Under the pieces are notes generated by a model. The model ran no database searches and was not told the origin of the DNA. It worked only from the letters and a program-made list of their open reading frames with translations. DNA of 64,000 nt from Gracilimonas sp. (GTDB taxonomy: Bacteria > Bacteroidota > Rhodothermia > Balneolales > Balneolaceae), in the NCBI GenBank assembly GCA_034520725.1, contig JAXHNH010000009.1, positions 7,252 to 71,251 of the forward strand, in the 5' to 3' direction. Of this stretch, positions 19,183 to 53,084 are shown piece by piece. The translations under genes were made by a program, and so were the position numbers. Positions within the stretch are counted from its first letter, which is position 1. The number at the start of each line of letters is the position of its first letter.

Positions 19183-19220
19183 TTCTGAGTTCGGAATTCC
19201 TTGTTCTATATTCGTTATTC
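19183..19220. repeat. Period-7 array (TTCNNNN)x5-TTC
   Basis: TTC at 19183, 19190, 19197, 19204, 19211, 19218; reverse complement shares GAATATNGAACAAGGAAT with 50196-50213. Confidence 0.75.
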
Positions 19221-19230
19221 CTCCGGCTTC

Positions 19231-19295
19231 CTGACAATACGTCGGTCATTACGTCAGTATTGATATGCCCTTCTATAGTTGGCATTGGTATTGCT
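19231..19295 (+). promoter_or_regulatory. Putative sigma54 -24/-12 promoter with upstream tandem operator-like sites
   Basis: TGGCATTGGTATTGCT at 19280-19295 has exact TGGCA-N6-TTGC spacing; CTGAC-AATAC-GTCGG (19231-45) and CGGTC-ATTAC-GTCAG (19243-57) upstream. Confidence 0.6.
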
Positions 19296-19330
19296 TATCT
19301 AACAGTGAATATGAACAAACCATTACGCAC

Positions 19331-19765
19331 ATGGGAGATTTTACAGAATTTGGTATTGAAATTGAGCGGCACCTATCTAAGCTGGGAAAAGACATTCAGC
19401 AGTTTGTAGAGAAAGTGGTGCCTTTAGCCAATGAAGATAAAGATTTTGCCCCCGATTGCGATATCCTGGAAAGCGAAGATGAGTATAAGATCATGCTGGA
19501 TCTGCCCGGATTATCGAAAAAAGAAATCGGTATCTCTCTTAAGAACAATGTGCTGACGGCGAAAGGAGAACGAGAAATTGAAGCCGGCGACGGTGAAGAA
19601 TTTAAGCGACAGGAACGACGCCGCGGTGCATTTGCCCGTGCGTTTGCGGTTCCACAAAATGTGAACGCGGCTGAAGTGTCAGCCAGTTTCAGGAATGGCG
19701 TTTTGACCATTTCGATGCCAAAATCGGAGGCTTTGAAGGATTCGCAGTCCATTCCGGTTAAGTAG
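19331..19765 (+). CDS. Hsp20/alpha-crystallin small heat-shock protein
   Basis: PDCDILES, LDLPG, LTAKGER, RGAFARAF, NGVLTISMPK; start moved to ATG 19331 because the ORF-track start overlaps the promoter. Confidence 0.92.
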   Translation: MGDFTEFGIEIERHLSKLGKDIQQFVEKVVPLANEDKDFAPDCDILESEDEYKIMLDLPGLSKKEIGISLKNNVLTAKGEREIEAGDGEEFKRQERRRGAFARAFAVPQNVNAAEVSASFRNGVLTISMPKSEALKDSQSIPVK

Positions 19766-19785
19766 AGTTTACGAGCATTGACAAC

Positions 19786-19859
19786 CGCTACGACGCAGAG
19801 CGATCGTAGCGAGTTAAAAAAAATACTGATACTCGTGCCTGACGCTCTGCATCGGCACG
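19786..19859. repeat. Inverted pair of REP-like palindromes with GCAGAGCG core
   Basis: cgctacga-cgcagagcga-tcgtagcg (19786-19811) and cgtgcc-tgacgctctgcatc-ggcacg (19834-19859) in opposite orientation. Confidence 0.7.
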
Positions 19860-19907
19860 GAGAAAGAAAAGAATATTTATAACAATAAAAGCAAATAGAT
19901 CAGACCA

Positions 19908-21851
19908 ATGGGAAAAATCATAGGAATTGACTTAGGAACAACCAACTCATGTGTAGCCGTAATGGAAGGCGGTGAGCCGGTGGTTATTCAGAACAGTGAG
20001 GGTGGTCGAACTACTCCTTCTGTTGTGGCTTTCTCCAAAGACGGAGAACGACTGGTAGGTGCCCCTGCAAAACGTCAGGCTATCACCAATCCGGAAAAGA
20101 CCGTGGCATCCGTGAAGAGATTCATGGGCCGCATGTTTAATGAAGTAAAAGACGAAACCAAACAGGTTTCTTACAAAGTGGTGAAAGGTGACGACGGCAC
20201 AGCACGTGTTCAGATCGAAGACCGAAAATATGCACCACAGGAAATTTCAGCGATGGTGCTTCAGAAAATGAAGCAAACGGCTGAAGAATATCTGGGCGAG
20301 AAAGTAACTGAGGCCGTTATCACGGTTCCTGCTTACTTTAATGATGCCCAGCGTAAAGCAACTCAGGAAGCCGGTAAAATTGCCGGACTTGAAGTGAAGC
20401 GTATCATCAACGAACCAACCGCTGCTTCTTTAGCATACGGATTGGATAAGAAAGATGATGACCAGACCATCGCAGTGTATGACCTTGGTGGTGGTACATT
20501 TGACGTTTCTATCCTGGAACTTGGTGACGGTGTATTTGAAGTGAAGTCTACTCACGGTGATACTCACCTTGGTGGTGATGACTTTGACCAGCGTATCATC
20601 GATTTCCTTGCAGATGAATTTAAGAAAGATGAAGGCATAGACCTTCGGAAAGATCCAATGGCGATGCAGCGTCTGAAAGATGCTGCTGAGAAAGCCAAGA
20701 TCGAGCTTTCAAGCTCACAGAAAACCAACATCAACCTGCCTTTTGTAACGGCAACCGATTCAGGACCAAAACACCTGAATATCGATCTGAGCCGTGCAAA
20801 ATTTGAGCAGCTTGTTGATGATCTTGTAAAACGATCTATCGATCCTTGTAAAAAAGCTCTTGATGATGCCGGAATGAGTAAGTCTGACATCGATCAGGTA
20901 ATTCTTGTAGGTGGTTCAACCCGGATTCCAAAAATTCAGGAAGAAGTAAAAGCTTTCTTTGGCAAAGACCCAAGTAAAGGTGTAAATCCTGATGAAGTTG
21001 TTGCCGTAGGTGCTGCTATTCAGGGTGGTGTTATGTCAGGTGATGTAGAAGACGTTGTTCTTCTCGACGTGACTCCGCTTACTCTCGGTATTGAGACCAT
21101 GGGTGGCGTAATGACTTCATTGATAGAGTCTAACAGCACGATCCCAACAAGCAAGTCTCAGACATTCTCAACTGCTGCAGATAATCAAAGCAGTGTAGAG
21201 ATTCATGTATTGCAGGGTGAACGTGCCAAAGCTCAGGATAACAGAACACTTGGTCGTTTTCACTTAGATGGAATTCCACCGGCTCCACGCGGAGTGCCTC
21301 AGATCGAAGTAACATTTGATATTGATGCGAACGGTGTGCTGAACATCACGGCGAAAGATAAAGGAACCGGAAAAGAGCAAAGTATTCGAATCGAATCTTC
21401 TTCAGGTTTAAGCGACGAAGAGATTCAAAAAATGAAGAAAGCCGCCGAAGAGCACGCAGAAGAGGACAAGCAGATCAAAGAGCGTGTAGAGAAACTAAAT
21501 CAGGCAGACAGTCTGGTATTCTCAACCAAGAAGCAGCTTGATGAATACGGAGACAAGATCTCTGATGAGAATAAGAAAACGATCGAAGAGGCTGTTGAAA
21601 ACCTCGAGAAAGCACATAAGGAAGAAAACATCGACGAGATCGATGCAGCTATCGAAGCCGTGAATAAGGCTTGGTCTGGTGCTTCTGAAGAGATCTATAA
21701 AGCTACTCAAGAAGATGCTGCTACAGGAGCCGCAGGTGCTGAAGGTGCCGGCGCTCAAGGTCAGCAGGCCGCTTCTGATGACGCAGAAGGCGGTGACGAT
21801 GCCGTTGATGCCGACTACGAAGTAGTTGATGACGAAGACGACAAAAAGTAA
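19908..21851 (+). CDS. dnaK: Chaperone DnaK
   Basis: [47 protein letters not shown]. Confidence 0.99.
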
Positions 21852-21886
21852 TCTGAGACTACTCACTTACTTTTAATAAAATTAAG

Positions 21887-21920
21887 ATCCCGCTTCGGTT
21901 TTCCGAGGCGGGATTTTTTT
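21887..21920 (+). terminator. Rho-independent terminator of hsp20-dnaK
   Basis: atcccgcttcgg-tttt-ccgaggcgggat followed by T run. Confidence 0.9.
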
Positions 21921-21939
21921 ATATCGTGGTTAGCTGTGT

Positions 21940-22518
21940 AATGGAACACGGATGACACGGATTTTGAGGATAATCGCAGAGTTGTTTTTAAAATTATTCT
22001 GATACGATGACGATTAAAAAGGCATGGATGGTTATAAGAATTTTAGCTTTACTTTGAATCGACGAGTTAATTATTGGGTTCAATAAAAAACCATTGGTCA
22101 AACGACCCGCCCCTCCCTACTGTACTTTGCTTGTCTGGAGGGAGAACTTGTAAGTACGATTCAGTTGTTATCAGATTCCATTATTCTGAAACACAGATTA
22201 AGTGGATGATGGGAGACACGCGGATTTTTACTTACCAAACTCTTTAACTGCCAAAACTTTCACTAAGGCGTCCTCTTTCCTTTCGCCGGTGCCAATGACC
22301 ATAAATTTGTATAGGCGTGCCGGAGCCCAGATAATCGGGGTAAAGTAAAGACAGAGAAAGAGTCTTGTAAGACATGGCATGTAAGAAATTTAGGTTGTGA
22401 ATATCGTCAGACCGCTGAGTCATCCTGTTCCTGCTCAAGCTATTTCCGGAAGCGGTCGGCTGAGTACGAAGCTTCAAAACTATCATGCCGCGAAAATCCA
22501 CCCAATCCGTGTTCCATT
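21940..22518. repeat. 579-bp segment bounded by perfect 14-bp inverted repeats with period-9 GGAT arms (MITE-like or decayed cassette)
   Basis: aatggaacacggat at 21940-53 and atccgtgttccatt at 22505-18; GGAT at 21950/21959/21968, ATCC at 22496/22505; no credible ORF inside. Confidence 0.6.
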
Positions 22519-22544
22519 CGGATGTAGATTACGCCCAACATTCG

Positions 22545-22552
22545 TATCTTTG
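22545..22552 (+). promoter_or_regulatory. Bacteroidota-type -7 promoter box for tsaD
   Basis: TATCTTTG matches TAnnTTTG, 4 nt before the ATG. Confidence 0.6.
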
Positions 22553-22556
22553 AGAT

Positions 22557-23543
22557 ATGAACATTTTAGCCATTGAATCTTCTTGTGATGACACCTCTGC
22601 TGCGGTTTTGACCGATCAGGGCATCCAATCAAATATCATCGCCTCTCAGTCTATACACCTGCAGTTTGGTGGCGTAGTGCCGGAGTTAGCCTCACGTGCT
22701 CATCAGAAAACCATCACGCAAACGGTACAGCAGGCGCTGCAAGAAGGAAAGACATCTTTGGATGAAATTGAGGCCATTGCCGTAACGCAGGGTCCTGGTT
22801 TGCTCGGTTCACTGTTAGTAGGAATTTGTTTTGCCAAGGGTTTAGCCCTTTCCCGTGAAATCCCACTTATTGGGGTGAACCACATGGATGCTCATATATA
22901 TGCCAACTTTATCGATCATGAGCCCGGGTTTCCATTGGTTGCTCTAACTGTTTCCGGTGGCCATACACAGCTTGTGCACGTTAAATCCCCATTCGAGCAT
23001 CAGATTATTGGTACAACCCGTGATGATGCGGCCGGAGAGGCATTTGATAAGATCGGTAAACTGCTTGGATTACCTTACCCTGCTGGTCCGCATATTGATA
23101 AGCATGCAAAGGATGGTGATCCAAAGTTTCACAAATTTCCACAGGCTTTGCTTAAAGAAGGACTCGATTTTAGCTTCTCTGGATTAAAAACCAGTGCGTT
23201 GTATTATTTGCAGGATAAAGAGGAAGAATGGATACAGGAGCACCTGAATGATATTTGTGCCAGCGTTTCTTATGCGATTGCGGAGGTGTTGGTGAAGAAA
23301 TTAAAACGTGCCATAAAACAAACGGGAGTGAAAACAGTATTGCTGGCCGGTGGCGTTTCGGCCAACTCCATGCTTCGGGAGAAATCTGAAAAGATGGCAA
23401 TGGAAATGGGTGTTCAGCTCTATTCCCCCAAAATAAGTTACTGCACCGACAACGCTGCGATGATCGCCATAACCGGGAAGTTTAAAGCAGATTTAGGTCA
23501 GTTTGATGATTTAGATATGGTGCCTTTTGCTTCACTTTCGTAA
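22557..23543 (+). CDS. tsaD: tRNA N6-threonylcarbamoyltransferase complex subunit TsaD
   Basis: LAIESSCDDT, GGVVPELASRAH, NHMDAH, VSGGHT, DDAAGEAFDK, DNAAMIA. Confidence 0.98.
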   Translation: MNILAIESSCDDTSAAVLTDQGIQSNIIASQSIHLQFGGVVPELASRAHQKTITQTVQQALQEGKTSLDEIEAIAVTQGPGLLGSLLVGICFAKGLALSREIPLIGVNHMDAHIYANFIDHEPGFPLVALTVSGGHTQLVHVKSPFEHQIIGTTRDDAAGEAFDKIGKLLGLPYPAGPHIDKHAKDGDPKFHKFPQALLKEGLDFSFSGLKTSALYYLQDKEEEWIQEHLNDICASVSYAIAEVLVKKLKRAIKQTGVKTVLLAGGVSANSMLREKSEKMAMEMGVQLYSPKISYCTDNAAMIAITGKFKADLGQFDDLDMVPFASLS

Positions 23544-23604
23544 ATGTTGAATGCTTAATTTTAAAAGTTAAATGAAGAGACTAACCATTTAACATTTAAA
23601 ATTA
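23541..23604. repeat. Period-7 AT-rich palindromic array between convergent tsaD and rnhA
   Basis: ttttaaaagttaaatg ... catttaacatttaaaa inverted arms built from (T)TAAATG-like heptamers. Confidence 0.6.
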
Positions 23605-24054
23605 TCTCACTGAAAATTTCTGCGAAGCTGCGACTGCCAGCTGATCTGCCCGTTCGTTTAATTCAATGCCAGCGTGTCCTTTTACCTTCACCCAAACTAC
23701 TTGGTGTGGTTTCATGGCTTTCAACATTTCCTGCCATAGTTCTTTGTTTTCAACCGGCTTTTTGTTGGATTTTCGCCAGCCGCGTTTTTGCCAGTTTTTG
23801 ATCCAGCCCTGTTCAAATGCATTGATGATAAGTGCGCTGTCGCTGTGGATCTTTACCAGGCACGGTTTTTTCAATGCCTTCAATGCCTCAATAACAGCCT
23901 GCATTTCCATCCGGTTGTTGGTCGTCTGAGGATCTCCTCCGGAAAGCTCCTTTTCGGTTCCATTCCACCTGAGAATAGCTCCCCAGCCACCCGGGCCGGG
24001 ATTTCCACTGCAAGCTCCGTCGGTATAAACTATGACTTCCGGTTTATTGGACAT
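23602..24054 (-). CDS. rnhA: Ribonuclease HI
   Basis: [42 protein letters not shown]. Confidence 0.97.
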
Positions 24055-24886
24055 ATTGAGCTGTAATCTGACTTAACTTTTGTTTCATGGTTTTTGCGGC
24101 ATTGGCAACGTGTTCAGGCCAGTCACTTTCGTCTTTACCGGCATATATAATGCCCCGGCTCGAATTGATAAGTGCCAGACCCTTGTGTTGTTTTAGTGCA
24201 CGTGTGAGCTCAGTTATTGAACCACCTTGTGCTCCGATACCCGGTATCAGTAAAGCACCTTTGGGGTGATAATTTAACACAGATTCAGCTTCATCAGCCT
24301 GAGTGGCACCAATGACCATACCCAGGTGTGATTTTGAAGAACCGGATCTCTTATTCAGCTTACTGGCAATAAACTGACTCATCATGTCATAACCGGAAAA
24401 CGGCTTCTTCAAAAAATCATTCGCACCGGTATTTGAAGTTAGTGTGAGGACATAAATGCCTTTCGTCTCATCTTTAGAAAAAGCATCAAGTGTCTCGAAT
24501 CCCATCAGTGGATTAAGGGTGATGGCATCTACATTAAATTTATCCCAAAATGCATTTTTATAATGTTCGGCTGTAGAGCTGATATCACCGCGCTTTGCAT
24601 CAGCGATAATGATCTTATCGTTCGGAATATGTTCTATCACTTCTTTAAAAACAACCAATCCATTTGGCCCCAAAGCTTCAAAAAATGCCAGGTTAGGTTT
24701 GTAAGCTGCACAATGATGAGCCGTGTAATTGACCACAAGTTTACAGAAATAGGTGACCTGTTCTTCAGGTGTCTCGAATTGATCTTTTACAGGGTTTGGA
24801 AGCAGATTTAAATTTGGATCCAATCCCACGCAAAGGGTTGATCCGGTTTTTGAAATGGATGTTCGGAGTTTTTCTAAAAATGTCAT
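24044..24886 (-). CDS. pyrF: Orotidine-5'-phosphate decarboxylase (intact copy)
   Basis: [40 protein letters not shown]; real start ATG 24886 (MTFLEKL). Confidence 0.95.
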
Positions 24887-25324
24887 AGATGAAAATTTTT
24901 GAGGAAGATAACATTTCTCGCATCTAATATTTTGGTTGAAAAAATGATACGATAGAGACGATTTTTCGCCCGGGGTGTTACGGATAATCATTAACGACCG
25001 AAAATTAGCTACGGTTATCTTCTTGGCGAATTGGTTGCCAAAATCCGATTTAAGATCTCGCCTTTATGTATTATTGGGGCAGAGTTTCTATTGTCATAAA
25101 CTATATCTCGGGGTTACCAACATATTGCTCCTACAAAGTATTGGTTGTATAATATGCTGTTTGATCAAGTTTCATTCTTCAGACCACTAAATAATTATAT
25201 CTTCAAAACTCTTTCCCGAAACGGTCGGGCCATCACTATGTTTATACTTGTAAAAGCATTGGGTAGCAGGTTCAATTTTTTTAGTTTATCCTAGTGTACG
25301 CAACTATCCACCAAATAAGTTACT

Positions 25325-28300: not shown

Positions 28301-28645
28301 GGGCAGCTGCAGGGACTCGGTTATCACTGGGAGCTATGGGCTATGCAGGCCGGTGGAATCTCTGAGCATGACGTTCTAAAGGTTGCAACCATTCAGGGTG
28401 CTGAGGCAATTGGACTGGATACTGATCTTGGAACTATCGAAGAAGGAAAGTTAGCTGACTTATTGATCCTGAACAGTGATCCCCTGGAAGATATCCGCAA
28501 TTCAAAAGATCTTGAATACATCATGAAGAACGGATATATGTACGAAGCAGAAACGCTGAATGAGGTATTCCCGAATCAGAAAGAATTACCAACCTTCTGG
28601 TGGCAGAATACGGAGCCGGCAGGAGTTCCCGGAGTAGAAAAATAG
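25325..28645 (+). CDS. Secreted amidohydrolase with TolB/PD40 beta-propeller repeats
   Basis: Signal peptide; LDVSPDG/SPDG repeats; IPGFVDTHAH; GSHGQLQG; GTIEEGKLADL. Confidence 0.9.
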   Translation: MKLFDTISLAPKLLFIVLFSLLTTDVVLAQNGDTNSDSTEAEELNELPLEPGREFSFDLTEGSWISLDVSPDGQTIVFDFLGDLYTLPMSGGEATQITEGMQFDSQPRYSPDGSKIAYISDASGGEGVWFYDVKTEENEQLTKGKDNEYQSPEWTPDGQYVIASKDDPGNHKIWLYHIDGGSGTPLVDEPGNLRMTEGAFGADERYVWFSRRSGTWNYNASLPQYQIATYDRETGDINTQGDRYGSSFRATLSSDGKWLVYGTRHDEHTGLVKRNLDTGDESWLAYPVQHDDQESRASRDVLPGMSFTPDNNHVVTSYDGKIWKLPIDGGDAVEIPFRVRGTIELGPELDFDYPIEDTSQFEITQIRDAVPSPDGNRIAFTALNEIYTMELPDGEPRKLVDVDETQAQPVWSPDGEWIAFVTWTPETGKLYKVRPNGRRLQQLNEEEGVFQDPVWNNAGDRIVVIKGLPQDFRNATQRSAFQGTSDLIWIDADGSENNFITYTNGRSNPHFVKGSDRIYLSSWGGLTSIRWDGTDEKEHLEVNRNGGGNASWIRMAPEGDQALAQIGTDLFVVTVPQVGGEAPDISVGGSSSAFPSLKLTDIGGQFPAWAWDANKIHWSIGNAHVIYDLVAQEVYSDSLEAVKEMEEEKEDPKTDDEEADEEEDEKKDEGYKPLEIRISVMADRDIPEGVMVLRGAKVITMNGDEIIENADLVIENNRITDVGARGEVEIPSGAEIKDVSGKTIIPGFVDTHAHFRHPVNLHRGEFWSYMTNLAYGVITTRDPQTATTDVLTYQDLVHAGKLLGPRVYSTGPGVFSSENIKDLDHAREVMKRYSDYYDTKTIKMYGAGNREQRQWIIQASKEEELMPTTEGSLDFKENLTQVIDGYPGHEHSFPVFPLYQDVIDLVAFSRTVYTPTLLVAYGGPWAENYYYATERPHDETKLQRFMPHQNLDERTRRRNAGWFMEEEHVFEELSVFVKDLVEAGGRAGVGSHGQLQGLGYHWELWAMQAGGISEHDVLKVATIQGAEAIGLDTDLGTIEEGKLADLLILNSDPLEDIRNSKDLEYIMKNGYMYEAETLNEVFPNQKELPTFWWQNTEPAGVPGVEK

Positions 28646-28708
28646 TGTTATAGTGTTAAAGTGTTAACGAAAAAACGGTAACACTTTAACACCTTAGCAC
28701 CTTATCAC
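28644..28708. repeat. Period-8 palindromic array between convergent genes
   Basis: GTGTTA at 28645/28653/28661 and TAACAC-like units at 28679/28687/28695/28703. Confidence 0.75.
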
Positions 28709-29376
28709 TATAAAACCGTCTCAGGGTGGACTTCTTCAAACCCATGAGGGGGACGATCTAGTGTCCAGGTTTCGAAATAGAAATGGCGTTCAGTGTTGAA
28801 CTTCTTTCCATTGATGCTGAAAAAGCGAAAATGGTCCGGCACTAATTTTTGCAATGGAAAGAACATATTGCGATACACGTTTTTTTTGGAGAATATCTGA
28901 AGGTCAAAACCATCTTTTGACAGAACTTTGTAAATAACGATATGCCCGTCATCTATGGTTTTCCTTAACGCTTCTTTGTGGTAACCATTATCTGAATCCT
29001 TAATAATGTGAAGTTGAGATATATTCTCTGCGAAATCTTTCTCTTCAGTAAGTATGATAGTTTCTCCAATATCCAAAGCCTGTATTGCGTCCTTTAGTGA
29101 GGGGAATTCGGATTTGTGTGTGAATATATTTGCTCCCTTAAAAGCTGTCTCAAGTGCATTGATGAGTTCTTCGTAGGCTGAAAGAACATTCAATCCAAAA
29201 CGCTCTTCATTCAGGTCGGTTCCGGTAAAGTAGAATCTGGAGTAGGTGGGGTCAGGCTTCATAAAATCCTGAAGCGAAGAGGCCATTTGTTTTGGGCTTT
29301 CAGATGCTTTTTGTTTACTCAGTTTATCAAGTCTCTGATCGTGATGGAAAATGAGTTTGAATATATTTGTAGTCAT
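28708..29376 (-). CDS. Hypothetical protein, intact copy A
   Basis: 222-aa ORF; homologous copy at 33273-33934; C-terminal YFETWTLDRPPHGFEE. Confidence 0.75.
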   Translation of the reverse strand: MTTNIFKLIFHHDQRLDKLSKQKASESPKQMASSLQDFMKPDPTYSRFYFTGTDLNEERFGLNVLSAYEELINALETAFKGANIFTHKSEFPSLKDAIQALDIGETIILTEEKDFAENISQLHIIKDSDNGYHKEALRKTIDDGHIVIYKVLSKDGFDLQIFSKKNVYRNMFFPLQKLVPDHFRFFSINGKKFNTERHFYFETWTLDRPPHGFEEVHPETVL

Positions 29377-37057: not shown

Positions 37058-37059
37058 TA

Positions 37060-43018: not shown

Positions 43019-43029
43019 CAACATTTATT

Positions 43030-44053: not shown

Positions 44054-44072
44054 TGATTAAGGTAAACGCATT

Positions 44073-44789
44073 ATGGCACACCCAGAATTAGTAAAACTTG
44101 AAGGAACAATTAGAGAGACCAGTAAGCAAGCCAATAAAGCGCTTCGCGAAGAGCTTCGTGTTCCTGCGGTACTCTATGGTCCCGAAGTAGAAGAGAATAT
44201 CCATTTTTCAGTAGATGAATTAGAAGTGGAAAAGATTCTTAGAAAACCACAGTCTAAACTTCAGGAGCTTACTGTAAACGGTAAAACGTATAAAACTCTC
44301 TTAAAGAGAACTGAGTTCGATCCTGTAACCGATCGTGTTGTTCATGCAGATTTCTATGTGCTTTCTGACGAGCATAAAGTGACGCTGCGTGTACCGATCA
44401 AGATCACCGGTAGCGCTAAAGGCGTTGTCGAAAATGGTGGTCGTGTGTTCAAACCAATGAACTTTATAAGAATTCGAGTACTGCCTGAAGCGATTCCTGC
44501 AGAGTTTGAATTAGACATCACACCACTAGAAATTGGTCAGTCGCTTCACATCTCAGATTTGAATCTGGAAGGAATTATTCCTCTGGATGATATGAGTCGT
44601 ACGATCGTGACCATTCGTCCTCCAAAAGGAGCCGATTTCCTCGAAAACCTTGTTTCAGGTGTTACTGATGAAGCCGCTGAAGAAGAAGTTGTGGAAGGTG
44701 AAGAGCTTGCAGAAGGCGAAGAGCTTGCTGAAGGTGAAGAGCCTGCTGAAGGTGAAGAAGGTGATGAAGAAGAATCAACCGAGGATTAA
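44073..44789 (+). CDS. rplY: 50S ribosomal protein L25/Ctc
   Basis: VPAVLYG, HADF, acidic tail; sits between prs and pth. Confidence 0.93.
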   Translation: MAHPELVKLEGTIRETSKQANKALREELRVPAVLYGPEVEENIHFSVDELEVEKILRKPQSKLQELTVNGKTYKTLLKRTEFDPVTDRVVHADFYVLSDEHKVTLRVPIKITGSAKGVVENGGRVFKPMNFIRIRVLPEAIPAEFELDITPLEIGQSLHISDLNLEGIIPLDDMSRTIVTIRPPKGADFLENLVSGVTDEAAEEEVVEGEELAEGEELAEGEEPAEGEEGDEEESTED

Positions 44790-44829
44790 GTCCGAAGTTA
44801 TTCACTAAACTAAACGTGTCCCGAATGCC

Positions 44830-45387
44830 ATGTCCATTATTGTAGGATTAGGAAATATTGGACAAGAGTATGAAGGAACACGCCACAATATAGGATTTGA
44901 AGTTGTTGACGCATTAGCGGAGACACTTTCTATTACATTTGGCCCGGGTGACGGGCCTTTTGTGGTTGCAGAGGGCAGGCACAGAGGCAGAAATGTCGTA
45001 CTGATAAAGCCAACTACATATATGAACAGAAGTGGATTGGCTGTCAGGAATGTCCTCTCAAAATACAAGACTGATAAAGAAGATTGCCTGATCATTTATG
45101 ATGATCTGAATCTCGATGTCGGGGATGTCAGGCTGAAGGCTACGGGCAGTGCCGGTGGCCATAATGGAATACAAAACATTATTGACTTGCTGGGGAGCAG
45201 AGATATTCCCCGCATTCGATTTGGGATCGGTAACGATTTTCCCAGAGGTAAACAGGTCGATTTTGTATTATCTCCATTCAAAAAAACAGATCAAAAATAT
45301 TTAGAAGAGGGCATTCAGAAAGCCCACGATGCTTCGCTTTATTTTGTACGGGAAGGCATCAACAAAACTATGAATCACTTTAATTAA
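44830..45387 (+). CDS. pth: Peptidyl-tRNA hydrolase
   Basis: GLGNIG..YEGTRHNIGF, KPTTYMNRSG, GGHNG, FVLSPF. Confidence 0.97.
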   Translation: MSIIVGLGNIGQEYEGTRHNIGFEVVDALAETLSITFGPGDGPFVVAEGRHRGRNVVLIKPTTYMNRSGLAVRNVLSKYKTDKEDCLIIYDDLNLDVGDVRLKATGSAGGHNGIQNIIDLLGSRDIPRIRFGIGNDFPRGKQVDFVLSPFKKTDQKYLEEGIQKAHDASLYFVREGINKTMNHFN

Positions 45388-45437
45388 CTATAAGTCTCAA
45401 ACCGACTTATTGAACTTAAAATACGTAACGGGAAACA

Positions 45438-47664
45438 ATGGATACAATAATCTATTTTATACCGGTGGCCGGAGTTATAGCACTTCTGTACACCATTTTT
45501 AAAACATCCTGGGTAACAAAACAGGAGATAGGAACTGAGCGCATGGAACGCATAAGCAAAAGTATTGCGAGCGGTGCCATGGCATTCTTGAAAGCTGAAT
45601 ACAGGGTACTAGCAGTATTTGTACTGGTTGTAGCTATAATACTTGGCTTCAGTGCAGATCCTACCACTTCTAGCTGGATGGTAGCTATCTCATTTGTTGT
45701 GGGTGCTATTTGTTCAGGTCTTGCCGGTTTTATTGGTATGAAAGTTGCAACCAAAGCCAATGTTAGAACCACACATGCTGCACGAACAAGCCTTGGTAAA
45801 GGCCTTGAAGTTGCTTTTGCCGGTGGATCCGTAATGGGCCTTGGTGTTGTTGGCCTTGGTGTTCTTGGCCTTAGTTTGTTGTTCATTATTTTCGGTAATG
45901 TATTTGGCCTTGAAGGTGCAGGTGCGGTTAATAAAGTACTTAGCCATTGTAACTGGATTTTCCTTTGGTGCCTCATCTATTGCCCTTTTTGCACGTGTTG
46001 GTGGAGGTATTTATACCAAAGCTGCTGACGTTGGCGCTGACCTTGTAGGTAAAGTTGAAGCCGGTATTCCAGAAGATCACCCTCTTAACCCAGCTACTAT
46101 TGCCGATAACGTAGGTGATAATGTTGGTGACGTAGCCGGTATGGGTGCCGACCTTTTTGAGTCTTATGTAGGGTCTATTATTGGTACTATGGTATTGGGT
46201 GCTGCTTTTATTGCAGGCGCAACAATTGACGGTGCTGTTTGGTCAGATGCATTCAACGGCCTTTCCGCTGTAATGCTTCCATTGGTTCTTGCCGGCGTTG
46301 GAATTTTGACTTCTATTCTTGGAACATTCTTTGTTCGCGTAAAAGAAGGTGGAGATCCTCAAAGGGCATTAAATATGGGTGAGTTTATTTCAGCAGCTGT
46401 AATGCTGATAGCTTCTTACTTTATCATTACCTGGATGCTTCCTGAAACATGGACATTCAACGGTGAAGTTTATAACAGTATGGGAGTATTTTGGGCCACT
46501 ATATTTGGCCTTGCAGCTGGACTTGGAATTGGGTTGATCACTGAGCATTACACCGGAACCGGAACTAAGCCCGTTTGGTCTATTGTGAAGCAATCTGTAA
46601 CCGGATCTGCAACAAACATCATTGCCGGACTTGGCGTTGGTATGATCTCAACTGCGATTCCTATTCTTATTATCGCTGTTGCAATTATTGGGGCCTATGA
46701 ATTTGCCGGATTGTACGGTATTGCGATCGCTGCGGTTGGGATGCTTTCAAACACAGGTATCCAGTTAGCTGTTGATGCTTACGGACCAATTTCTGATAAT
46801 GCCGGTGGTATTGCAGAGATGGCTGAACTCCCTGGTGAAGTTCGTGAGCGTACCGATAAGCTTGATGCGGTAGGTAACACGACTGCTGCTATCGGTAAAG
46901 GTTTTGCGATCGGTTCTGCTGCCTTAACAGCACTTGCTCTATTTGCTGCATTCATTACTGCTTTTGAAGCTGTGAACCCGGGAGTAGAGGTTATTATTAG
47001 TGTAACCAACCCTTCTGTGATGGCCGCGTTATTTGTAGGGGCAATGTTACCATTCTTGTTCTCTGCTCTTTCTATGAATGCCGTAGGCCGTGCCGCAATG
47101 AGTATGATCGAAGAAGTGCGCCGTCAGTTCCGTGATATTCCTGAATTGACCAAAGCACTTGCTGCTATGAACCGCAACGAAGGCAAGGAATTGGCTGATT
47201 GGTCTGATGAAGACCGTACTACTTTTGAAGCCGCTGACGGTAAAGCTGAGTATGAAAAATGTGTTGAGATATCGACACAAGCTTCCATTCGTGAGATGGT
47301 TGTTCCGGGTCTGTTAGCCGTAATTGTTCCTGTACTCTTCGGCTTTGTTCCGGGATTTATCAGTGACAGCCCAACACTTGGTGCTGAAATGCTTGGTGGA
47401 CTTCTTGCAGGTGTAACTTCTGCAGGTGTTCTTATGGCTCTCTTTCAGTCTAATGCCGGTGGTGCTTGGGATAACGCCAAGAAGATGATCGAAGAAGGCG
47501 TGACCATCGACGGTGTTGAATATGGAAAAGGCTCTGAGCCTCACAAAGCGGGTGTTGTTGGAGATACTGTTGGTGATCCATTCAAGGATACTTCAGGTCC
47601 TTCACTGAACATCCTGCTTAAGTTGATGTCAGTTGTAGCTCTTGTAATTGCTACTATGATCTAA
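45438..47664 (+). CDS. hppA: Membrane-bound ion-pumping pyrophosphatase (K+-dependent type, probably Na+), split by one +1 frameshift at ~45939-45944
   Basis: [43 protein letters not shown] (Ala at the K/A determinant), [10 protein letters not shown]; N- and C-terminal parts in different frames. Confidence 0.9.
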
Positions 47665-47686
47665 AGCTTAGCTAAGCAAAAAATTC

Positions 47687-47722
47687 AAAGCCCCGTGCAT
47701 AACTCATGCACGGGGCTTTTTT
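47687..47722 (+). terminator. Rho-independent terminator
   Basis: aaagccccgtgcat-aactc-atgcacggggctttttt. Confidence 0.9.
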
Positions 47723-47811
47723 ATGGCTTTAATTTCTGAAAAATGGTGTTTCCTTATTTCATACAGAAATGAAAGGTCAACCAACTAAAAACATAACACG
47801 TATTCCATGAC

Positions 47812-47851
47812 CTGCCCGTAGAGGCGCGATGCGTCGCGTCTCTACGGGCAG
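47812..47851. repeat. GTAG-tagged REP palindrome
   Basis: ctgcccgtagaggcgcga-tgcg-tcgcgtctctacgggcag: 18-bp stem with one G-T pair. Confidence 0.75.
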
Positions 47852-47954
47852 AATCAAGATTGTTTTTATCGATGTTTGAAGAACTAAAAAAAGAACCTTT
47901 TACACCTGAAATTCATTGTACTAATACAATCGAAACTAATACAGGAGTACAATT

Positions 47955-48539
47955 ATGGCAGCTAAGAAAATATTAATGATCGTTGGAGATTATGGAGAAG
48001 ACCTTGAGATCATGGTGCCCTTTCAGGCATTGCAGATGGTTGGGCACGAAGTTCATGCGGTTTGCCCGGATAAGAAAAAAGGAGATACCTGTCCAACAGC
48101 AGTGCATGATTTTGTGGGAGACCAAACCTACAAAGAATTAAGGGGTCATAACTTCACGCTGAATTATGATTTTGATAAAGCAGATCCTGCAGATTATGAT
48201 GCTTTGGTTCTGCCCGGCGGACGTGCCCCTGAATATCTCCGTTTGAATGATGAGGTTGTTTCTAAAGTGAAGCACTTCCTAGATGAGGACAAGCCCATTG
48301 CCGCTATTTGCCACGGACTTCAGATCTTTGCGAAAACAGGTGGCATTGAAGGGAGAACGTTAACAGCCTATCCTGCCTGCGGACCAGAAATGGAAGCTTG
48401 TGGTGCCAATTATAAAGAAGTGCCGCCTACAGAAGCCGTAGTTGATGGAAATCTTGTTACCTCACCAGCATGGCCCGGACATCAAAAATGGCTGGCAGAA
48501 TTTCTGAAGGTGTTGGGAACAGAGATCACACATAAGTAA
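47955..48539 (+). CDS. DJ-1/PfpI-family protein
   Basis: [32 protein letters not shown]. Confidence 0.92.
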
Positions 48540-48547
48540 GACATGTT

Positions 48548-48574
48548 TCGCTCCAACGCAGAGCGTAGGAGCGA
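48548..48574. repeat. REP-like palindrome with GCAGAGCG core
   Basis: tcgctcc-aacgcagagcgta-ggagcga. Confidence 0.7.
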
Positions 48575-48615
48575 GTTAGGTAAATTCTATTTCTGACAAT
48601 TTAAAATTGGCTAAC

Positions 48616-50130
48616 TTAAACGTCGAAATCTAAACCCTGAGCCAGTGGCAGAGAATCGCCCCAGTTCATGGTGTTAGTTTGTCGACGCATGTAGGCTTTC
48701 CATGCATCGGAACCGGATTCACGGCCGCCTCCGGTTTCTTTTTCACCACCAAAGGCACCACCAATTTCGGCACCGCTAGTTCCAATGTTTACATTGGCAA
48801 TACCGCAATCGGAACCACGCGCACTTAGGAAGGTCTCAGCTTCACGCATATTAAGGGTAAACATGGCCGAACTTAGCCCTTGTTTAACACCGTTGTGTAT
48901 GGCAATAGCTTCATCCAGGTCTTTGTATTTGATGAGGTATAGAATAGGTGCAAAAGTTTCTTCCTGAACGATATCATAATGATTCTCTACTTCAGCCAGT
49001 GCGGGGCGGACGTAGAAGCCTTCTTCATCCAAAACATCACCACCGTAAATAACTTTACCGCCTTCTTTCTCAATTTCCTTTAGGGCGTTCTGCATGTTAT
49101 TAATAGCATCCTCATCGATCATTGGTCCTACAAGGGTGTTTTCTTCCAGCGGATCCCCGATCGTAATATTATCATAGATATTTATCAGGCGTTCTTTAAC
49201 CTGATCGTAAACTGACTCGTGAATGATCAGTCGGCGGGTGCTTGTACAGCGCTGTCCGCAGGTTCCAACAGCGCCAAATACGGTTGCACGGATCGCCATT
49301 TCGATATCAGCGTTTTCTGAAATGATGATAGCATTGTTACCGCCAAGCTCCAGTATGGTTTTACCTAACCGGGAAGCAACAGTTTTTCCAACTTCCTTAC
49401 CCATTCGGATTGAACCGGTAGCTGAGATAAGTGGAATGCGGGTATCTTCGGTCATCCATTCACCAAGCTCACGGTCACCGGTTACAAGGTTAAAGATACC
49501 TTCAGGCAGGTCATTTTCTTTGAGCACTTTAGCTACGATCTTTTGAACGGCTACTCCACATAGAGGAGTTTTTTCTGAACCTTTCCAGATCATTACGTTA
49601 CCGCAAACCGCAGCTATCATGGCATTCCAGCTCCAAACGGCAACCGGAAAGTTGAAAGCCGAAATGATACCAACTATACCAAGAGGGTGCCACTGCTCAT
49701 ACATTCTGTGTTGAGGACGCTCGCTATGCATGGTCTTGCCATACAGCATACGGGATTGCCCTACAGCAAAATCACAGATATCGATCATTTCCTGAACTTC
49801 CCCCAATCCTTCCTGATAGATCTTGCCCATTTCATAGGTCACTAGTTTACCTAGTGGCTCTTTGTACTCGCGAAGTTTTTGTCCGATCTGACGAACTATT
49901 TCTCCACGCTGGGGAGCCGGCATATTTTTCCAGACCTCAAAAGCTTTTTGAGCTTCCTCAACCACATGGTCGTATTGTTCTTTTGTCGTAACGCCAACAG
50001 TAGCAATCTTTTCACCGTTGGTAGGTGTGAAGCTGCTGATGGTCTCTTTGCTTTCAATGTGTTTTTGTCCGGTGCTTGTTCCCGGGTTAATACCTTCAAT
50101 TCCAAGTGTTTTCAGAAACTCCATAGTCAT
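48616..50130 (-). CDS. Aldehyde dehydrogenase (ALDH7/antiquitin-like)
   Basis: ISAFNFP, LELGGNNA, GQRCT (catalytic Cys), EETFAP, GAFGGEKETG. Confidence 0.93.
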   Translation of the reverse strand: MTMEFLKTLGIEGINPGTSTGQKHIESKETISSFTPTNGEKIATVGVTTKEQYDHVVEEAQKAFEVWKNMPAPQRGEIVRQIGQKLREYKEPLGKLVTYEMGKIYQEGLGEVQEMIDICDFAVGQSRMLYGKTMHSERPQHRMYEQWHPLGIVGIISAFNFPVAVWSWNAMIAAVCGNVMIWKGSEKTPLCGVAVQKIVAKVLKENDLPEGIFNLVTGDRELGEWMTEDTRIPLISATGSIRMGKEVGKTVASRLGKTILELGGNNAIIISENADIEMAIRATVFGAVGTCGQRCTSTRRLIIHESVYDQVKERLINIYDNITIGDPLEENTLVGPMIDEDAINNMQNALKEIEKEGGKVIYGGDVLDEEGFYVRPALAEVENHYDIVQEETFAPILYLIKYKDLDEAIAIHNGVKQGLSSAMFTLNMREAETFLSARGSDCGIANVNIGTSGAEIGGAFGGEKETGGGRESGSDAWKAYMRRQTNTMNWGDSLPLAQGLDFDV

Positions 50131-50175
50131 AATTTATTTACTGAATTTTTAGGAAGATAGGGAAGTAAGCAGTTA

Positions 50176-50266
50176 GAATACAGGGAGTGAATATCCAATA
50201 TCGAACAAGGAATATTAAACACTGAAGTTTTTTATTCCTGTATTCTGAATTCTGAGTTCTGTATTC
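50176..50266. repeat. Period-7 palindromic array (GAA arm / TTC arm) between divergent genes
   Basis: GAA/CAA/AAA at 50189, 50196, 50203, 50210, 50217, 50224; TTC at 50243, 50250, 50257, 50264. Confidence 0.7.
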
Positions 50267-50273
50267 TTCCATC

Positions 50274-51053
50274 ATGAGAAATGCATCAAACAACGAGATC
50301 AAATTACTTAGAAAGCTGAACCGAAAGAAGTACCGAGAAAAGGAGCAGCGGTTTATTGTAGAGGGAGAGCGGGCGGTTGAGCAGGTGCTTGAGAATAGTT
50401 TGGTGGATGTGGAGGCGGTTTTTGTGGGGGAGAGAATTAAAGTGCAAGAGGGGTGGTTCAAGGGTGTGGCGGTTCGTTTGTTGGAAGCAGATGTTCTTGA
50501 TGAAGTGGCGGACACGGAAAATACGCAGGGGATACTGGCTGTTTGTAAGATGCCTGAAGAAATTCAGCCTGAAAAATTAGCGGGAGAAAGTGGCATTATT
50601 GTAGCAACCGATGCGATTCAGGATCCCGGAAACATGGGTACGATCTTGCGGACGGCAGCCTGGTTTGGAGCCAGGGCTTTGATAGCCGGAAAAGGAAGTG
50701 TGGATGTCTATCATCCCAAAGTAGTGCGAAGTACGGCGGGGGCAACCGGAAGTATCCCTGTATTAACGGGCGACCTGGAGGATATCTTCAGGAAACTGGA
50801 AGGATCAGGGTGGGAGATTCTGCTGCTGGATGGTGGGCAAGGAGCGGAAGACCTGGGGTCGATTCAACCCACAGAAAAAACCGTATTGGTTGTGGGGAAT
50901 GAGGGAAATGGAATCAGTGAAAACATATTGAATTCAAATCGGAGAAAAGTAAAAATTGAATCATCACCCGGACAGGAAAAAGTAGAAAGCCTGAATGCAG
51001 CAGTGGCTGTAAGCATCGCGCTTTTTCAGTTAACAGTTAACAATGATCAGTAA
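50274..51053 (+). CDS. TrmH/SpoU-family RNA methyltransferase
   Basis: IQDPGNMGTILRTA, VVRSTAG, VGNEGNG, ESLNAAVA. Confidence 0.92.
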   Translation: MRNASNNEIKLLRKLNRKKYREKEQRFIVEGERAVEQVLENSLVDVEAVFVGERIKVQEGWFKGVAVRLLEADVLDEVADTENTQGILAVCKMPEEIQPEKLAGESGIIVATDAIQDPGNMGTILRTAAWFGARALIAGKGSVDVYHPKVVRSTAGATGSIPVLTGDLEDIFRKLEGSGWEILLLDGGQGAEDLGSIQPTEKTVLVVGNEGNGISENILNSNRRKVKIESSPGQEKVESLNAAVAVSIALFQLTVNNDQ

Positions 51054-51098
51054 ACAGATTTTACCTATTTGGAAAGTTGGATTGGAATTGAACATGTT

Positions 51099-51167
51099 CT
51101 GCTAACTGCTAACTGCTAATGCTAACTGCTAACTGCTAACTGCTAACTGCTAACTGCTAACTGCTAA
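51099..51167. repeat. Heptamer microsatellite (CTGCTAA)x10, one unit 6 bp
   Basis: Units at 51099, 51106, 51113, 51120 (TGCTAA), 51126, 51133, 51140, 51147, 51154, 51161. Confidence 0.95.
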
Positions 51168-51308
51168 CAGTAATAATTTTGTGTTAAATCTGTCGGACTC
51201 GTTGCATAAGAGTTTATCATTAGCTTTATTTCGACAGACGTTCGTTATTCATCTACCTATATAATTATTGGCTAGTATTAACCTTCTTACAACCAAAACC
51301 TCCCCTCT

Positions 51309-52641
51309 ATGCCAAAGAAGAAAGAGAAGAAGATCTTCGTTCTCGACACATCCGTTCTGCTCTACGACTATGAAGCTGTCCGAAATTTTGAAAAAAATGA
51401 TGTAGCCATTCCTATCACCGTTCTGGAAGAACTGGATACCTTCAAAAAAGGTAACAATGTGATCAATTTGCATGCAAGGGAATTCATTCGCTATCTGGAT
51501 GGGATCTCTGATACAAACATGCTTCAAAACTGGATCCCATTGAATGGCAGGTCTCACGGTAATCTTCGGGTGATTACCAATCAGAACAGTTCGCTGGATG
51601 CCACAAAGGTGTACGGGTCCGATAAGAATGATCACCGGATCATAAATGCTGCCTTACATCTGAAGGAGGAGAATCCTGATCAGCGTGTCATTCTTGTTTC
51701 AAAAGATATAAACCTGAGGCTGAAGGCCCGGGCTCTCAATCTGGAGGCGGAAGATTATGAGACTATTCAGATCAAGGATATTGAGCATCTTTATAGGGGT
51801 AAAACTGAGGTTGAAGTTGAAAATCCGGCAACCATTGCAAAGTTCTATGAAGAAGGTGAGATAGATCCGAAGGATCTGGGGCAGAAAGACCCTTCCTGTA
51901 ACCATTACTACATCATGAAAGCTCATGGAGCATCAGCTTTAGGTTGGTTCAATCCAAAATCTAAAATGATCGAAGTGGTAGACAAGGTTCATGCTTATGG
52001 CATTCACCCCAAAAATGCTGAACAGACCTTTGCGCTTACATGCCCTGCAAAATAAGAAGGTGCTTTGTACCACTGTGACCGGTGCAGCCGGGACCGGAAA
52101 GACTTTATTGGCACTGGCAGCCGCGTTGGAACAGCGAAGTGATTTTAAGCAAGTGTATATGGCCCGGCCGATCGTACCGCTTAGCAATAAAGACCTGGGT
52201 TTTCTGCCGGGTGATGCCAATCAGAAGATAGATCCATACATGCAGCCCCTTTGGGATAATCTTAGCTATATAAAAAATCAATACAAGGAAAGCAGTAAGC
52301 ATTTCAAGAAAATTGATGAGATGCTGCAAACCGACAAACTCAGAATTGTTCCGCTGGCCTATATTCGCGGCCGAAGTTTATCCAATGTGATATTTATTAT
52401 CGATGAAGCTCAGAACCTGACACCCCATGAAGTCAAAACCATTATCACACGGGCGGGACAGAACACCAAGATCATCTTCACGGGAGACATCTTTCAGATC
52501 GATACCCCATATCTTGATGCTCAAAGTAACGGGCTTAGTTATTTAGTGGACAGAATGCACGACCATGAACTGTATGCACACATTAATTTAGAGAAAGGAG
52601 AACGATCGGATCTGGCTAATTTAGCCTCGAAACTTTTATAA
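51309..52641 (+). CDS. phoH: PhoH-family protein (N-terminal PIN domain plus ATPase), split by one +1 frameshift at 52035-52038
   Basis: [11 protein letters not shown] motif; [12 protein letters not shown]; GAAGTGKT; YIRGRSL; IDEAQN; GDIFQID. Confidence 0.88.
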
Positions 52642-52712
52642 AGTACAAGGTACAAGGTGTTAGGGTCAAGGTGTAAGTGGTGTCTTGAACCTCGTGCTAA
52701 ACCTTGTGCCTA
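52641..52712. repeat. Period-7 palindromic array between convergent genes
   Basis: AAG/TAG at 52647, 52654, 52661, 52668, 52675; CTT/CTC/CTA arm at 52684-52712. Confidence 0.6.
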
Positions 52713-52715
52713 AAA

Positions 52716-52964
52716 TTAATTTTCTTTGGAGGGGCTTAGGAAATCAACCTGGAATCTGAAATGCTCTGTTTCAAGGGCCATGATATCGTAAAGGTCTTGT
52801 ACTACCTTGAATACTTCTTTTGGAGCTCCAATAATGGTAGAGGACAGATAGCCGACTTCAATTTCCACATCATATTGAGCCAGGTGCTCCAGCAGATCCT
52901 GGACTTTTTCTCTTGGGTCGTCTTCTGATAGCGGGATATAGGTTAGCTGTGCAATGGTTCTCAT
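52716..52964 (-). CDS. MTH1187/YkoF-like thiamine-binding small protein
   Basis: AQLTYIPL; EVGYLSSTIIG..EVF..VQDL fits this ferredoxin-like family. Confidence 0.65.
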   Translation of the reverse strand: MRTIAQLTYIPLSEDDPREKVQDLLEHLAQYDVEIEVGYLSSTIIGAPKEVFKVVQDLYDIMALETEHFRFQVDFLSPSKEN

Positions 52965-53042
52965 AGGAAATAAGGCTGATTTTATTTAATACTTTTAATT
53001 AGTTCAAAGATAAGGCAGAAGAGGTAAAGAGGCTAATTTAAG

Positions 53043-53084
53043 TGAATATTGAATATTCAATAATTAATCCTGATTATTGAATGA
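53043..53084. repeat. Period-7 AT-rich array
   Basis: tgaatat tgaatat tcaataa ttaatcc tgattat tgaatga. Confidence 0.5.

Follow-up and report, generated by a model that had tools for sequence, protein, structure and literature searches.

Short tandem arrays with periods of seven to nine nucleotides, most of them paired with a reverse-complementary partner array, occupy a number of intergenic gaps in a 64,000-nucleotide stretch of a Gracilimonas sp. genome (hereafter, the window; positions 7252-71251 of contig C9 in a 3.32-Mb draft of 26 contigs with 42% G+C). These periodic palindromes constitute a class of elements of their own, and their architecture is that of the arms flanking the genes of two protein families: TIGR02436, the four-helix-bundle (4HB) "23S rRNA intervening-sequence protein" family, and GxxExxY, a family of PD-(D/E)XK genes. 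Both families are very large, and we know of no function for either. The palindromes are probably gene-less relatives of hairpin cassettes of the intervening-sequence (IVS) type, reshaped by slippage and by recombination between their arms. In congeneric species, one of the sites in the window (51027-51168) is the slot of a cassette; the states of such slots change by replacement, inversion and gene loss, and the arrays expand by slippage.

The abundance of the arrays was assessed by an autocorrelation scan of the whole genome (at least 15 matches in 21 positions), in which the null was a Markov model of second order built on the spacers themselves. As the initial annotation had supposed, periodic arrays are far commoner than expected by chance: 209 intergenic arrays were observed against 6.6 at lag 7, 77 against 9 at lag 8, 28 against 8.6 at lag 9, and 31 against 7.4 at lag 11, and a stricter threshold of 17/21 matches gave 62 against 0 and 14 against 0.4. 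The excess in intergenic DNA amounts to approximately 30-fold for period 7 and 8-fold for period 8. Tandem Repeats Finder (TRF) recovered 93 arrays of at least four copies with period 7, as compared with 7, 10 and 7 arrays with periods 6, 8 and 9, and 32 of the 38 lag-7 arrays with 18/21 matches fall in the 19% of the genome left uncalled by a crude gene caller. Intergenic hairpins are also in excess, with 380 inverted repeats versus ~38 in the null and, for arms of at least 18 nt, 112 versus 3-9. When the hairpin arms are pooled, their autocorrelation reaches 0.38 at lag 7 and 0.37 at lag 8, its highest values, compared with ~0.25 at baseline; 56 hairpins have a clear period of 7 or 8.

These elements are located at the extreme 3' ends of genes, often providing the last codons and the stop codon: the median distance from the nearest stop codon to the start of the hairpin is 16 nt for periodic hairpins and 65 nt for non-periodic ones. 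The preference for convergent junctions, suspected from the window, holds genome-wide, since 16 of 58 periodic hairpins occupy convergent junctions, which make up only 12.6% of all junctions; divergent junctions are depleted (4/58). The presence of stop-codon words was considered as a defining property of the units and rejected, the enrichment being only modest (56% of units contain a stop codon versus 44% of random 7-mers, and all three frames are closed in 32% versus 16%) and families such as GGACCGN having no stop at all. Dense arrays of GGACCGN and TAGTNTT heptamers, with stretches uncalled by the rough gene caller, were observed at C20:184000-200500 and C24:231900-235800; possible interpretations are islands rich in repeats, or decayed cassettes that have clustered.

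Every type of unit found in the window recurs at 4-16 unlinked loci, which by the rough gene calls are essentially all intergenic, and control spacings one base shorter or longer gave 0-1 intergenic hits per unit type. At period 7, three successive AGGT units were found at 12 loci (0 at periods 6 and 8), CAGT at 9, TTCTG at 4, GAA.AT at 16, and five successive TTC units at 13 intergenic loci (none intergenic at periods 6 and 8, and one coding hit at period 6); GTGTTA at period 8 occurs at 13 intergenic loci and GGAT at period 9 at 9 loci. A unit consists of a conserved core of 4-5 bases and 2-3 free positions at a fixed phase, and at least ten such families, mostly AT-rich, exist in the genome. 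The variable positions differ in pattern from locus to locus but agree between the two arms of any one locus. One 8-mer palindrome family (TCGGTCNT/ACCGAACG) is present in 7-10 copies with 88-100% identity including the loop, and its copies flank a TIGR02436 fragment. Outward runs of GTGTTANN 8-mers were also noticed around a small TonB-C-like lipoprotein gene (C25:234806-235319), which is either a non-4HB cargo or a gene that happens to lie between two half palindromes.

The connection to the two gene families, suggested in the initial annotation together with the common architecture of the sites, was found at three levels. The genome contains 14 matches to TIGR02436, of which several are fragments or pseudogenes, and 4 to GxxExxY; none of either family lies in the window, and contig C9 as a whole has no TIGR02436 match. 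Reading of the flanks revealed inverted arms around 13 of the 14 TIGR02436 genes and all four GxxExxY genes, mostly with period 7 or 8; two of the latter four have lag-9 arms of the GAT/GGAT type, in agreement with the period-9 class of the initial annotation. When four congeners were added to the source genome, an automated search for the best inverted repeat gave an arm lag of 7 or 8 in ~50 of 57 TIGR02436 cassettes. Finally, a search with a 3-protein alignment provided 73 TIGR02436 loci from Bacteroidota, Acidobacteriota, Chloroflexota, Desulfobacterota, Planctomycetota, Verrucomicrobiota, Clostridia, the candidate phyla radiation (CPR) and other groups; at a cut-off score of at least 14, inverted arms flank 50 of them, as opposed to 0/73 mismatched controls, in which the left flank of one locus was paired with the right flank of another. 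Among the cross-phylum arms with clear periodicity, the best lag was 7 in 34 and 8 in 11.

The correspondence between a cassette protein and its arms is loose. Pairs of proteins with at least 70% identity share the arm unit in 71% of cases, pairs with 55-70% identity in 11%, and pairs below 55% in ~3%; clusters of proteins span non-orthologous loci with like arms, and orthologous cassettes may keep the gene but differ in their arms. Strict protein-to-arm specificity was therefore set aside as weak, except among very recent relatives. These data bear on the explanation that a protein able to read the repeats binds to the arrays, such as 4HB proteins that would each read their own heptamer core, with gene-less arrays as extra sites. 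We consider it very improbable: a short core with free positions at a fixed phase, the association of the arms with TIGR02436 genes across phyla and the unit shared by very close proteins speak for it, but the moderately similar proteins rarely share a unit, the unit families far outnumber the intact 4HB genes of the genome, and similar arms occur at the structurally unrelated GxxExxY genes. The closest solved structure to the cassette proteins is that of Xanthomonas campestris XCC0516 (PDB 2GSC, E 1.6e-25).

A promoter-like motif, TTGTAAGGAATT-N13-GCTCTTAC (also given as TTTTTTGTAAGGAATT-N13-GCTCTTACTATA), precedes most TIGR02436 cassettes and, in total, ~35-40 genes genome-wide (e.g., C15:32988, C11:646041, C8:14409 and, just outside the window, C9:74196); it differs from the usual Bacteroidota TTTG/TAnnTTTG spacing. 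The motif was rejected as a cassette-specific recombination site, as it is also found ahead of ssb, several RAYT-like genes and many ordinary genes, and is therefore a general promoter-like motif of this genome. Since the motif separates the left arm from the gene, a transcript started by the cassette itself would not include both arms.

The arms of the window element 51027-51168 are of the same family as those of two cassettes in the genome. These TIGR02436 cassettes, C20:168661 and C15:119021, are paralogous, and each lies between a (CTGCTAA)n array, the reverse strand of (CAGTTAG)n, and an CTGTTTACTG...TTAACTG arm. The same two arms enclose 41 nt in the window element and, with 21 perfect units, 57 nt in another gene-less element at C1:211851-212108.

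The junction that holds the window element, between an rlmB/trmH-like methyltransferase gene and phoH2, was compared among congeners. Synteny around tsaD is retained in 18 of these, whose TsaD proteins have 82-92% identity, and the side of the aldehyde dehydrogenase gene (ALDH) was obtained for 16 of the 18. The source genome and G004 carry the CAGT.../(CTGCTAA)n element with different spacers, G003 and G015 a CAGTNNN palindrome, G008, G013, G014 and G018 GTGATNNN 8-mers, and G017 an 8-mer palindrome with a lone TCAACTN arm. In G002, G016 and G009, the junction contains a complete TIGR02436 cassette with GTTGANA arms, on the plus strand in G002 and on the minus strand in the other two; the corresponding segment of the window is 51019-51172. 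A tree of three proteins places G002 and G016 as sisters, and the cassette has therefore flipped between sister species; G009 belongs to a distant clade, where its nearest relatives carry two other gene-less families. The junction states are scattered across the species tree, and the swapped segment has its right edge at the same conserved sequence in all species and its left edge within the last codons of the rlmB-like gene. At the same junction of G004 (locus L058), a 2.1-kb insertion with three genes, one of them DsbA/thioredoxin-like, interrupts the 3' end of the rlmB-like gene directly upstream of the CAGT/(CTGCTAA)n element, and the rlmB end is duplicated.

Similar replacements were observed elsewhere. 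Downstream of the gene for a 1106-aa TolB/amidohydrolase protein, at the junction of the 28645-28716 palindrome, the genomes compared have GTGTTANN, GTGTTTAA or GTGATNAA 8-mers, TTCGTTA 7-mers, or just 24-34 nt. Mapping the cassettes of relatives back to the source genome revealed seven further junctions that are filled in the relative and hold a gene-less periodic palindrome here, as well as one true empty site, with an ordinary terminator. At C14:111016, the same TTCTGAN arms enclose a gene in G016 and none in the source genome. The locus C14:110945-111103 of the source genome keeps the arms and a promoter-like motif but has no gene. Across species, one and the same junction is thus seen with another arm family, with a cassette either way round, with a cassette from which the gene has disappeared, or nearly empty.

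Three other window junctions are conserved. Between tsaD and rnhA, a period-7 palindrome in three unit variants is present in 14 of the 15 short congener junctions (the 2-4 kb gaps of two further congeners are excluded from this count); it abuts both stop codons and often provides that of rnhA. The outer CAGAANN/TTCTGNN arms of the ALDH/rlmB junction are recognisable in all 14 congeners with the junction, around a loop that is empty, holds a different hairpin or a GAANATN array nested in it, or extends to 1.4 kb. The AGGTNNT arms between phoH2 and the ykoF-like gene are kept in 10 of 10 congeners with the junction, two of them with an extra hairpin in the loop. Hairpins nested in an arm or loop of a periodic palindrome were noted at tsaD/rnhA in G013 (L012) and at phoH2/ykoF in two loci (L064 and L070); one nested element is a CGCAGAG-type palindrome, and another, GTCATTCAGAGCGATAGCGAAGAATC..., is common to two species.

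These comparisons qualify the proposal of the initial annotation that the palindromes are sites at which a mobile cassette is missing or has been excised, which is right on kinship and overstated on mechanism. The site at 51027-51168 is indeed filled in three congeners, and the arrays are in clear excess; the tsaD-rnhA, phoH-ykoF and ALDH-trmH junctions, for which filled and empty states had been anticipated, are gene-less in every readable (short) congener junction, 9-15 each. Several observations weigh against the cassette reading. The position of several palindromes is conserved genus-wide, which would also fit a selected function or slow evolution in situ. Junctions filled in a relative mostly carry an arm family other than that of the gene-less element here, so that most gene-less sites are not simple excision products. 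The spacers of same-arm gene-less elements are mutually unrelated, and these elements are therefore not simple copies of one gene-less element. Copies with at least 85% identity exist for only 7 of the 56 clear palindromes, all of one 8-mer family; the other 49, including all those of the window, have no near-identical copy. In the junction comparisons, no target-site duplication or precise insertion boundary could be defined, and no dedicated recombinase or transposase was found.

Alternatively, the palindromes may have originated in place, by polymerase slippage of ~7 nt followed by template switching or palindromisation that makes the second arm, with nothing mobile involved and the genes coincidental. 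The perfect arrays (CTGCTAA)10, (TGCTAAC)21 and (AGTTAGC)11.7 point to ongoing slippage, and locus-specific variable positions that match between the arms of one locus, unrelated spacers, the lack of a target-site duplication or transposase, the 49 of 56 palindromes without a near-identical copy, and a position and unit family kept across the genus at three junctions agree with such an origin. It nevertheless appears rather unlikely, because the same 7-mer and 8-mer cores recur at unlinked loci and hardly ever at control spacings, paralogous cassettes at different loci have the same arms, a single junction can differ completely in its family between near relatives, one family is dispersed with its loop, and the arms are tied to one protein family across phyla. 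We retain the reading of the palindromes as cassette relatives. Dispersal of unit families to unlinked loci and of same-arm cassettes to non-orthologous loci, the unit shared by most pairs of close cassette proteins and the near-identical copies of the one 8-mer family speak for movement; mobility as such is unproven.

As regards mechanism, an element would become fixed directly 3' of a stop codon, where its arms may pair with each other, most likely as DNA, given that no RNA-strand signature was found. Paired arms would be recombinogenic, which would explain inversion of the interior, its loss, and the use of loops as landing pads for more insertions. Replication slippage could lengthen or shorten the arrays, e.g., (CTGCTAA)10-21, and arm-to-arm correction would maintain the complementarity of both arms. 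Alternative states would spread between lineages mainly by homologous recombination in the flanks, with occasional copying to new loci. Gene-less copies appear to arise both via loss of the interior and via establishment of arms alone, and the elements look mostly selfish or neutral.

The window arrays were confirmed by reading of the sequence and by inverted-repeat and tandem-repeat scans, with RNA folds computed for the short-spacer palindromes and the 19183 array (Table 1). Arrays are present at every coordinate that the initial annotation had named. Its description of a left arm with a reverse-complementary right arm applies to seven of the eight sites, six of which are short-spacer periodic palindromes; the exception is the lone direct array at 19183, which has no partner arm and no hairpin (fold z +0.19). 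Definition by periodicity alone fails for 21940/22505, whose arms belong to a sequence-defined dispersed repeat with the core ATGGAACACGGATGACACGGAT (22 genome copies at no more than 4 mismatches). The units, described there as unrelated, are in fact those of the multi-copy families, and the 19183, 50189 and 53043 sites share a single one (GAANATN/TTC).

Table 1. Periodic arrays and palindromes in the window.
Element	Position	Strand	Location	Fold energy (kcal/mol)	z-score
Solo direct array TTCNNNN x6-7, reverse complement of GAANATN family	19183..19232	+	Upstream of hsp20		
Left GGAT-type arm (AATGGAACACGGATGACACGGATTTTGAGGATAATCGC), period ~9	21940..21978	+			
Right arm of ATCC type, with 14-nt complementarity to left arm, looser beyond	22470..22518	+			
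Period-7 palindrome TAAATGN/CATTTAN	23541..23604	.	Convergent tsaD/rnhA junction	-12.5	-2.8
Period-8 palindrome GTGTTANN x3 / NNTAACAC x4	28645..28716	.	Convergent junction	-27.1	-6.5
Long period-7 palindrome CAGAANN/TTCTGNN	50150..50271	.	Divergent ALDH/rlmB-like gap	-35.5	-4.0
Left arm, CAGTTAA-type heptamers	51027..51057	+	Encodes last 8 codons and stop of rlmB-like gene		
Right arm expanded to (CTGCTAA)10, one 1-nt deletion	51099..51168	+	After 41-nt spacer 51058-51098		
Period-7 palindrome AAGGTNN/NNACCTT	52643..52714	.	Convergent phoH2/ykoF-like junction	-28.4	-4.85
Short palindrome TGAATAT/ATTCA, GAANATN family	53043..53090	.	Upstream of mscL	-13.6	-3.1

The genes around these sites are aroA, hsp20, dnaK, tsaD, rnhA, a pyrF-like gene and the 1106-aa TolB/amidohydrolase gene, and, in a second group, ALDH, the rlmB/trmH-like methyltransferase gene, the split phoH2, a ykoF-like gene, mscL and an OPT transporter gene. 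The units are AT-rich (TAAATGN, GTGTTANN, CAGTTAA, AAGGTNN, GAANATN), and several palindromes are fitted closely to stop codons: that at 23541-23604 spans from the stop codon of tsaD to that of rnhA, the first unit of the 28645 palindrome directly follows the TAG of the upstream gene, and the 52643-52714 palindrome begins directly after one stop codon and ends 1-4 nt short of the other. The loop of the 50150-50271 palindrome contains a nested solo GAANATN array (50189-50228). The fold of 51027-51168 has a z-score of -1.4 on the plus strand and -4.6 (-43.8 kcal/mol) on the minus strand, because the mismatch in each unit is A·C on the former and G·U on the latter. At the orthologous junctions, the 19183 array (aroA/hsp20) is found only in the source genome, G016 and G017 among the genomes compared, and the 53043 palindrome in G017, G016 and G013. 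A dyad, CTGACAATACGTCGGTCATTACGTCAG, at 19231-19262 upstream of hsp20-dnaK is kept in all congeners (L001-L017) while the surrounding repeats change, and is likely a heat-shock operator. PhoH2 (PIN and PhoH ATPase domains) is encoded by two open reading frames (ORFs), 51309-52055 and 51991-52641, with a 65-nt overlap; the split, at the domain boundary, has the appearance of a +1 frameshift, or else of an error in sequencing.

The GGAT/ATCC arms at 21940/22505 enclose ~490 nt of unique, apparently non-coding DNA. This interior (21979-22469) contains no convincing ORF, gave no Rfam match and no Pfam match for its ORFs, and has no homologue in the source genome or in the dnaK/tsaD gaps of the congeners, whose lengths are between 376 nt and 4.4 kb and whose genes differ. 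A decayed GxxExxY gene between the arms was rejected, as tblastn with the four GxxExxY proteins of the source genome gave noise only. The right ATCC arm beside tsaD is kept in most congeners, and in G004 and G015 the two arms are only ~35 nt apart.

The stability of the folds raises the question of a role in RNA, and the elements might have been selected as terminators, as 3'-end mRNA stabilisers or, by analogy with IVS stems, as RNase III sites. Such a role would explain their persistence at gene ends: the z-scores are strongly negative (-2.8 to -6.5), the elements favour convergent junctions and the downstream sides of genes and are under-represented at divergent junctions, they lie near stop codons at positions kept over the genus, and IVS stems are proven RNase III substrates (PMC4990558). 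Classical terminators they are not. This possibility was rejected on the basis of T-rich tails (present in 10% of elements versus 35% of short, GC-richer hairpins), G+C content (34% in the stems) and loop size (median 15 nt); unlike the elements, a textbook terminator stands separately after dnaK, and the Rfam scan of the window detected no known RNA family except one tRNA. Stems maintained as RNA should show an excess of G·U over A·C mismatches on the transcribed strand, and no such bias was detected, either in gene-less elements between co-directional genes (15 G·U to 23 A·C) or in cassette arms relative to the cassette gene (71 to 74), although control non-periodic hairpins were also flat, which limits the power of the test. 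On these two flat results, RNA-level selection was rejected. Furthermore, the outer units of conserved palindromes gather uncompensated mismatches, one element (50150-50271) lies in a divergent promoter gap, and a hairpin function leaves the periodicity unexplained. Selection for RNA hairpins thus seems unlikely as a general account.

A more far-reaching version of the cassette reading could be advanced, though we regard it as doubtful: periodic-arm hairpins with TIGR02436 and GxxExxY genes would form a cross-phylum class of transposase-less mobile or recombinogenic elements, of which the IVS of rRNA would be a special case and whose gene-less copies would account for much of the bacterial heptamer excess. 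Movement would proceed via the hairpin arms, as single-stranded DNA or cruciforms, with the small protein acting on them. The source genome and its congeners constitute a clean comparative system, in which the heptamer excess and the orphan families appear as two faces of one element class, with the same arms with and without a gene, a cassette flip between sister species, and swaps of arm families at fixed slots after stop codons. The arms link the long-unexplained excess of bacterial heptamers to a gene cassette for which ribosomal RNA has been the only known location. If this link is general, rRNA intervening sequences would become one instance of a widespread cassette, thousands of intergenic repeats could be recognised by annotators, and the roles of both orphan protein families would acquire a testable handle.

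Several known systems share some of these features. MITEs (miniature inverted-repeat transposable elements) are likewise small non-coding inverted-repeat elements related to gene-bearing ones, which is reminiscent of the one 8-mer family with 7-10 near-identical copies; however, neither target-site duplications nor a transposase partner were found here, most elements are single-copy in their exact sequence, and their arms are internally repetitive. The attC cassettes of integrons are also single small genes between imperfect inverted repeats defined by structure and not by sequence, but the cassettes described here are scattered rather than arrayed beside an integrase, and the gene-bearing ones appear to carry their own promoter. 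Repetitive extragenic palindromic (REP) sequences, with REPINs, BIMEs and the associated RAYT (TnpA-REP) gene, resemble the elements in being numerous short intergenic palindromes, often just after stops, whose gene-less copies greatly outnumber a small repeat-flanked gene. They differ in being defined by sequence and not by periodicity, and in their gene, a Y1 transposase. The source genome itself contains at least five RAYT/IS200-like Y1 transposase genes (MGRSRYK...; C3:451745, C11:66432, C20:74328, C25:125384, C25:239164), each preceded by a GC-rich REP-like hairpin, which makes a second, non-periodic palindrome system in this genome: ordinary REP-like hairpins flank the RAYT-like genes, whereas periodic arms flank the 4HB and GxxExxY genes.

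The closest repeats in the literature are the heptamers of Xanthomonas and cyanobacteria. Rehm et al. described 186 heterogeneous (GGGANTN)n repeats in X. campestris, among them 70-75 convergent inverted pairs whose positions are conserved between species; they noted that heptamers are over-represented in bacteria and that no detailed literature focuses on them, and found no link to mobile elements or insertion sequences (IS) and none to genes (PMC4692102). In that paper, the heptamer excess and a hypothesis of ~7-nt polymerase slippage are attributed to Mrazek et al. 2007 (via PMC4692102). These repeats and the cyanobacterial STRR sequences, GGGGA(T/C)T, are intergenic and built of degenerate 7-nt units that have fixed conserved positions within them (PMC4692102), as are the elements reported here; the convergent inverted pairs and the occupation of the same junctions in relatives, with variable length and sequence, are further similarities to the Xanthomonas repeats. 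The differences are that those genomes each use one G-rich unit, read as a G-quadruplex motif (PMC4692102), while here at least ten families, mostly AT-rich, have no G-quadruplex potential. The Xanthomonas paper draws no link to TIGR02436 or GxxExxY, although its repeat #15 overlaps the start of XCC0516, a family member (supplementary table, PMC4692102); this overlap is suggestive only, because it is a single case and ~6% of the genes there neighbour a repeat. Full-text literature searches retrieved no paper that joins heptamer repeats to either family.

With respect to the IVS of 23S rRNA, the elements differ in location, all window sites lying between protein-coding genes and none in helix 25 or 45 of 23S rRNA; most are gene-less, and gene-bearing copies have a promoter-like motif inside the arms. 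Their arms consist of tandem 7- or 8-nt units, and none such are described in the passages of the IVS paper concerned (PMC4990558). Among the features that characterise an IVS, the window shows the long-stem terminal inverted repeats and lacks the 4HB ORF and the 23S location. The likeness is in the plan of the element and in its distribution. As presented in those passages, the IVS of Coxiella burnetii is 428 nt long, with a 28-bp terminal stem around the S23p ORF, and is cut by RNase III within the stem, and ORF-bearing IVS of C. burnetii and Leptospira hold a gene of the TIGR02436/PF05635 family in the loop of an inverted-repeat stem and are distributed sporadically, as would be expected for a selfish element (PMC4990558); the cassettes of the source genome and its congeners share both the stem-enclosed gene and the sporadic distribution.

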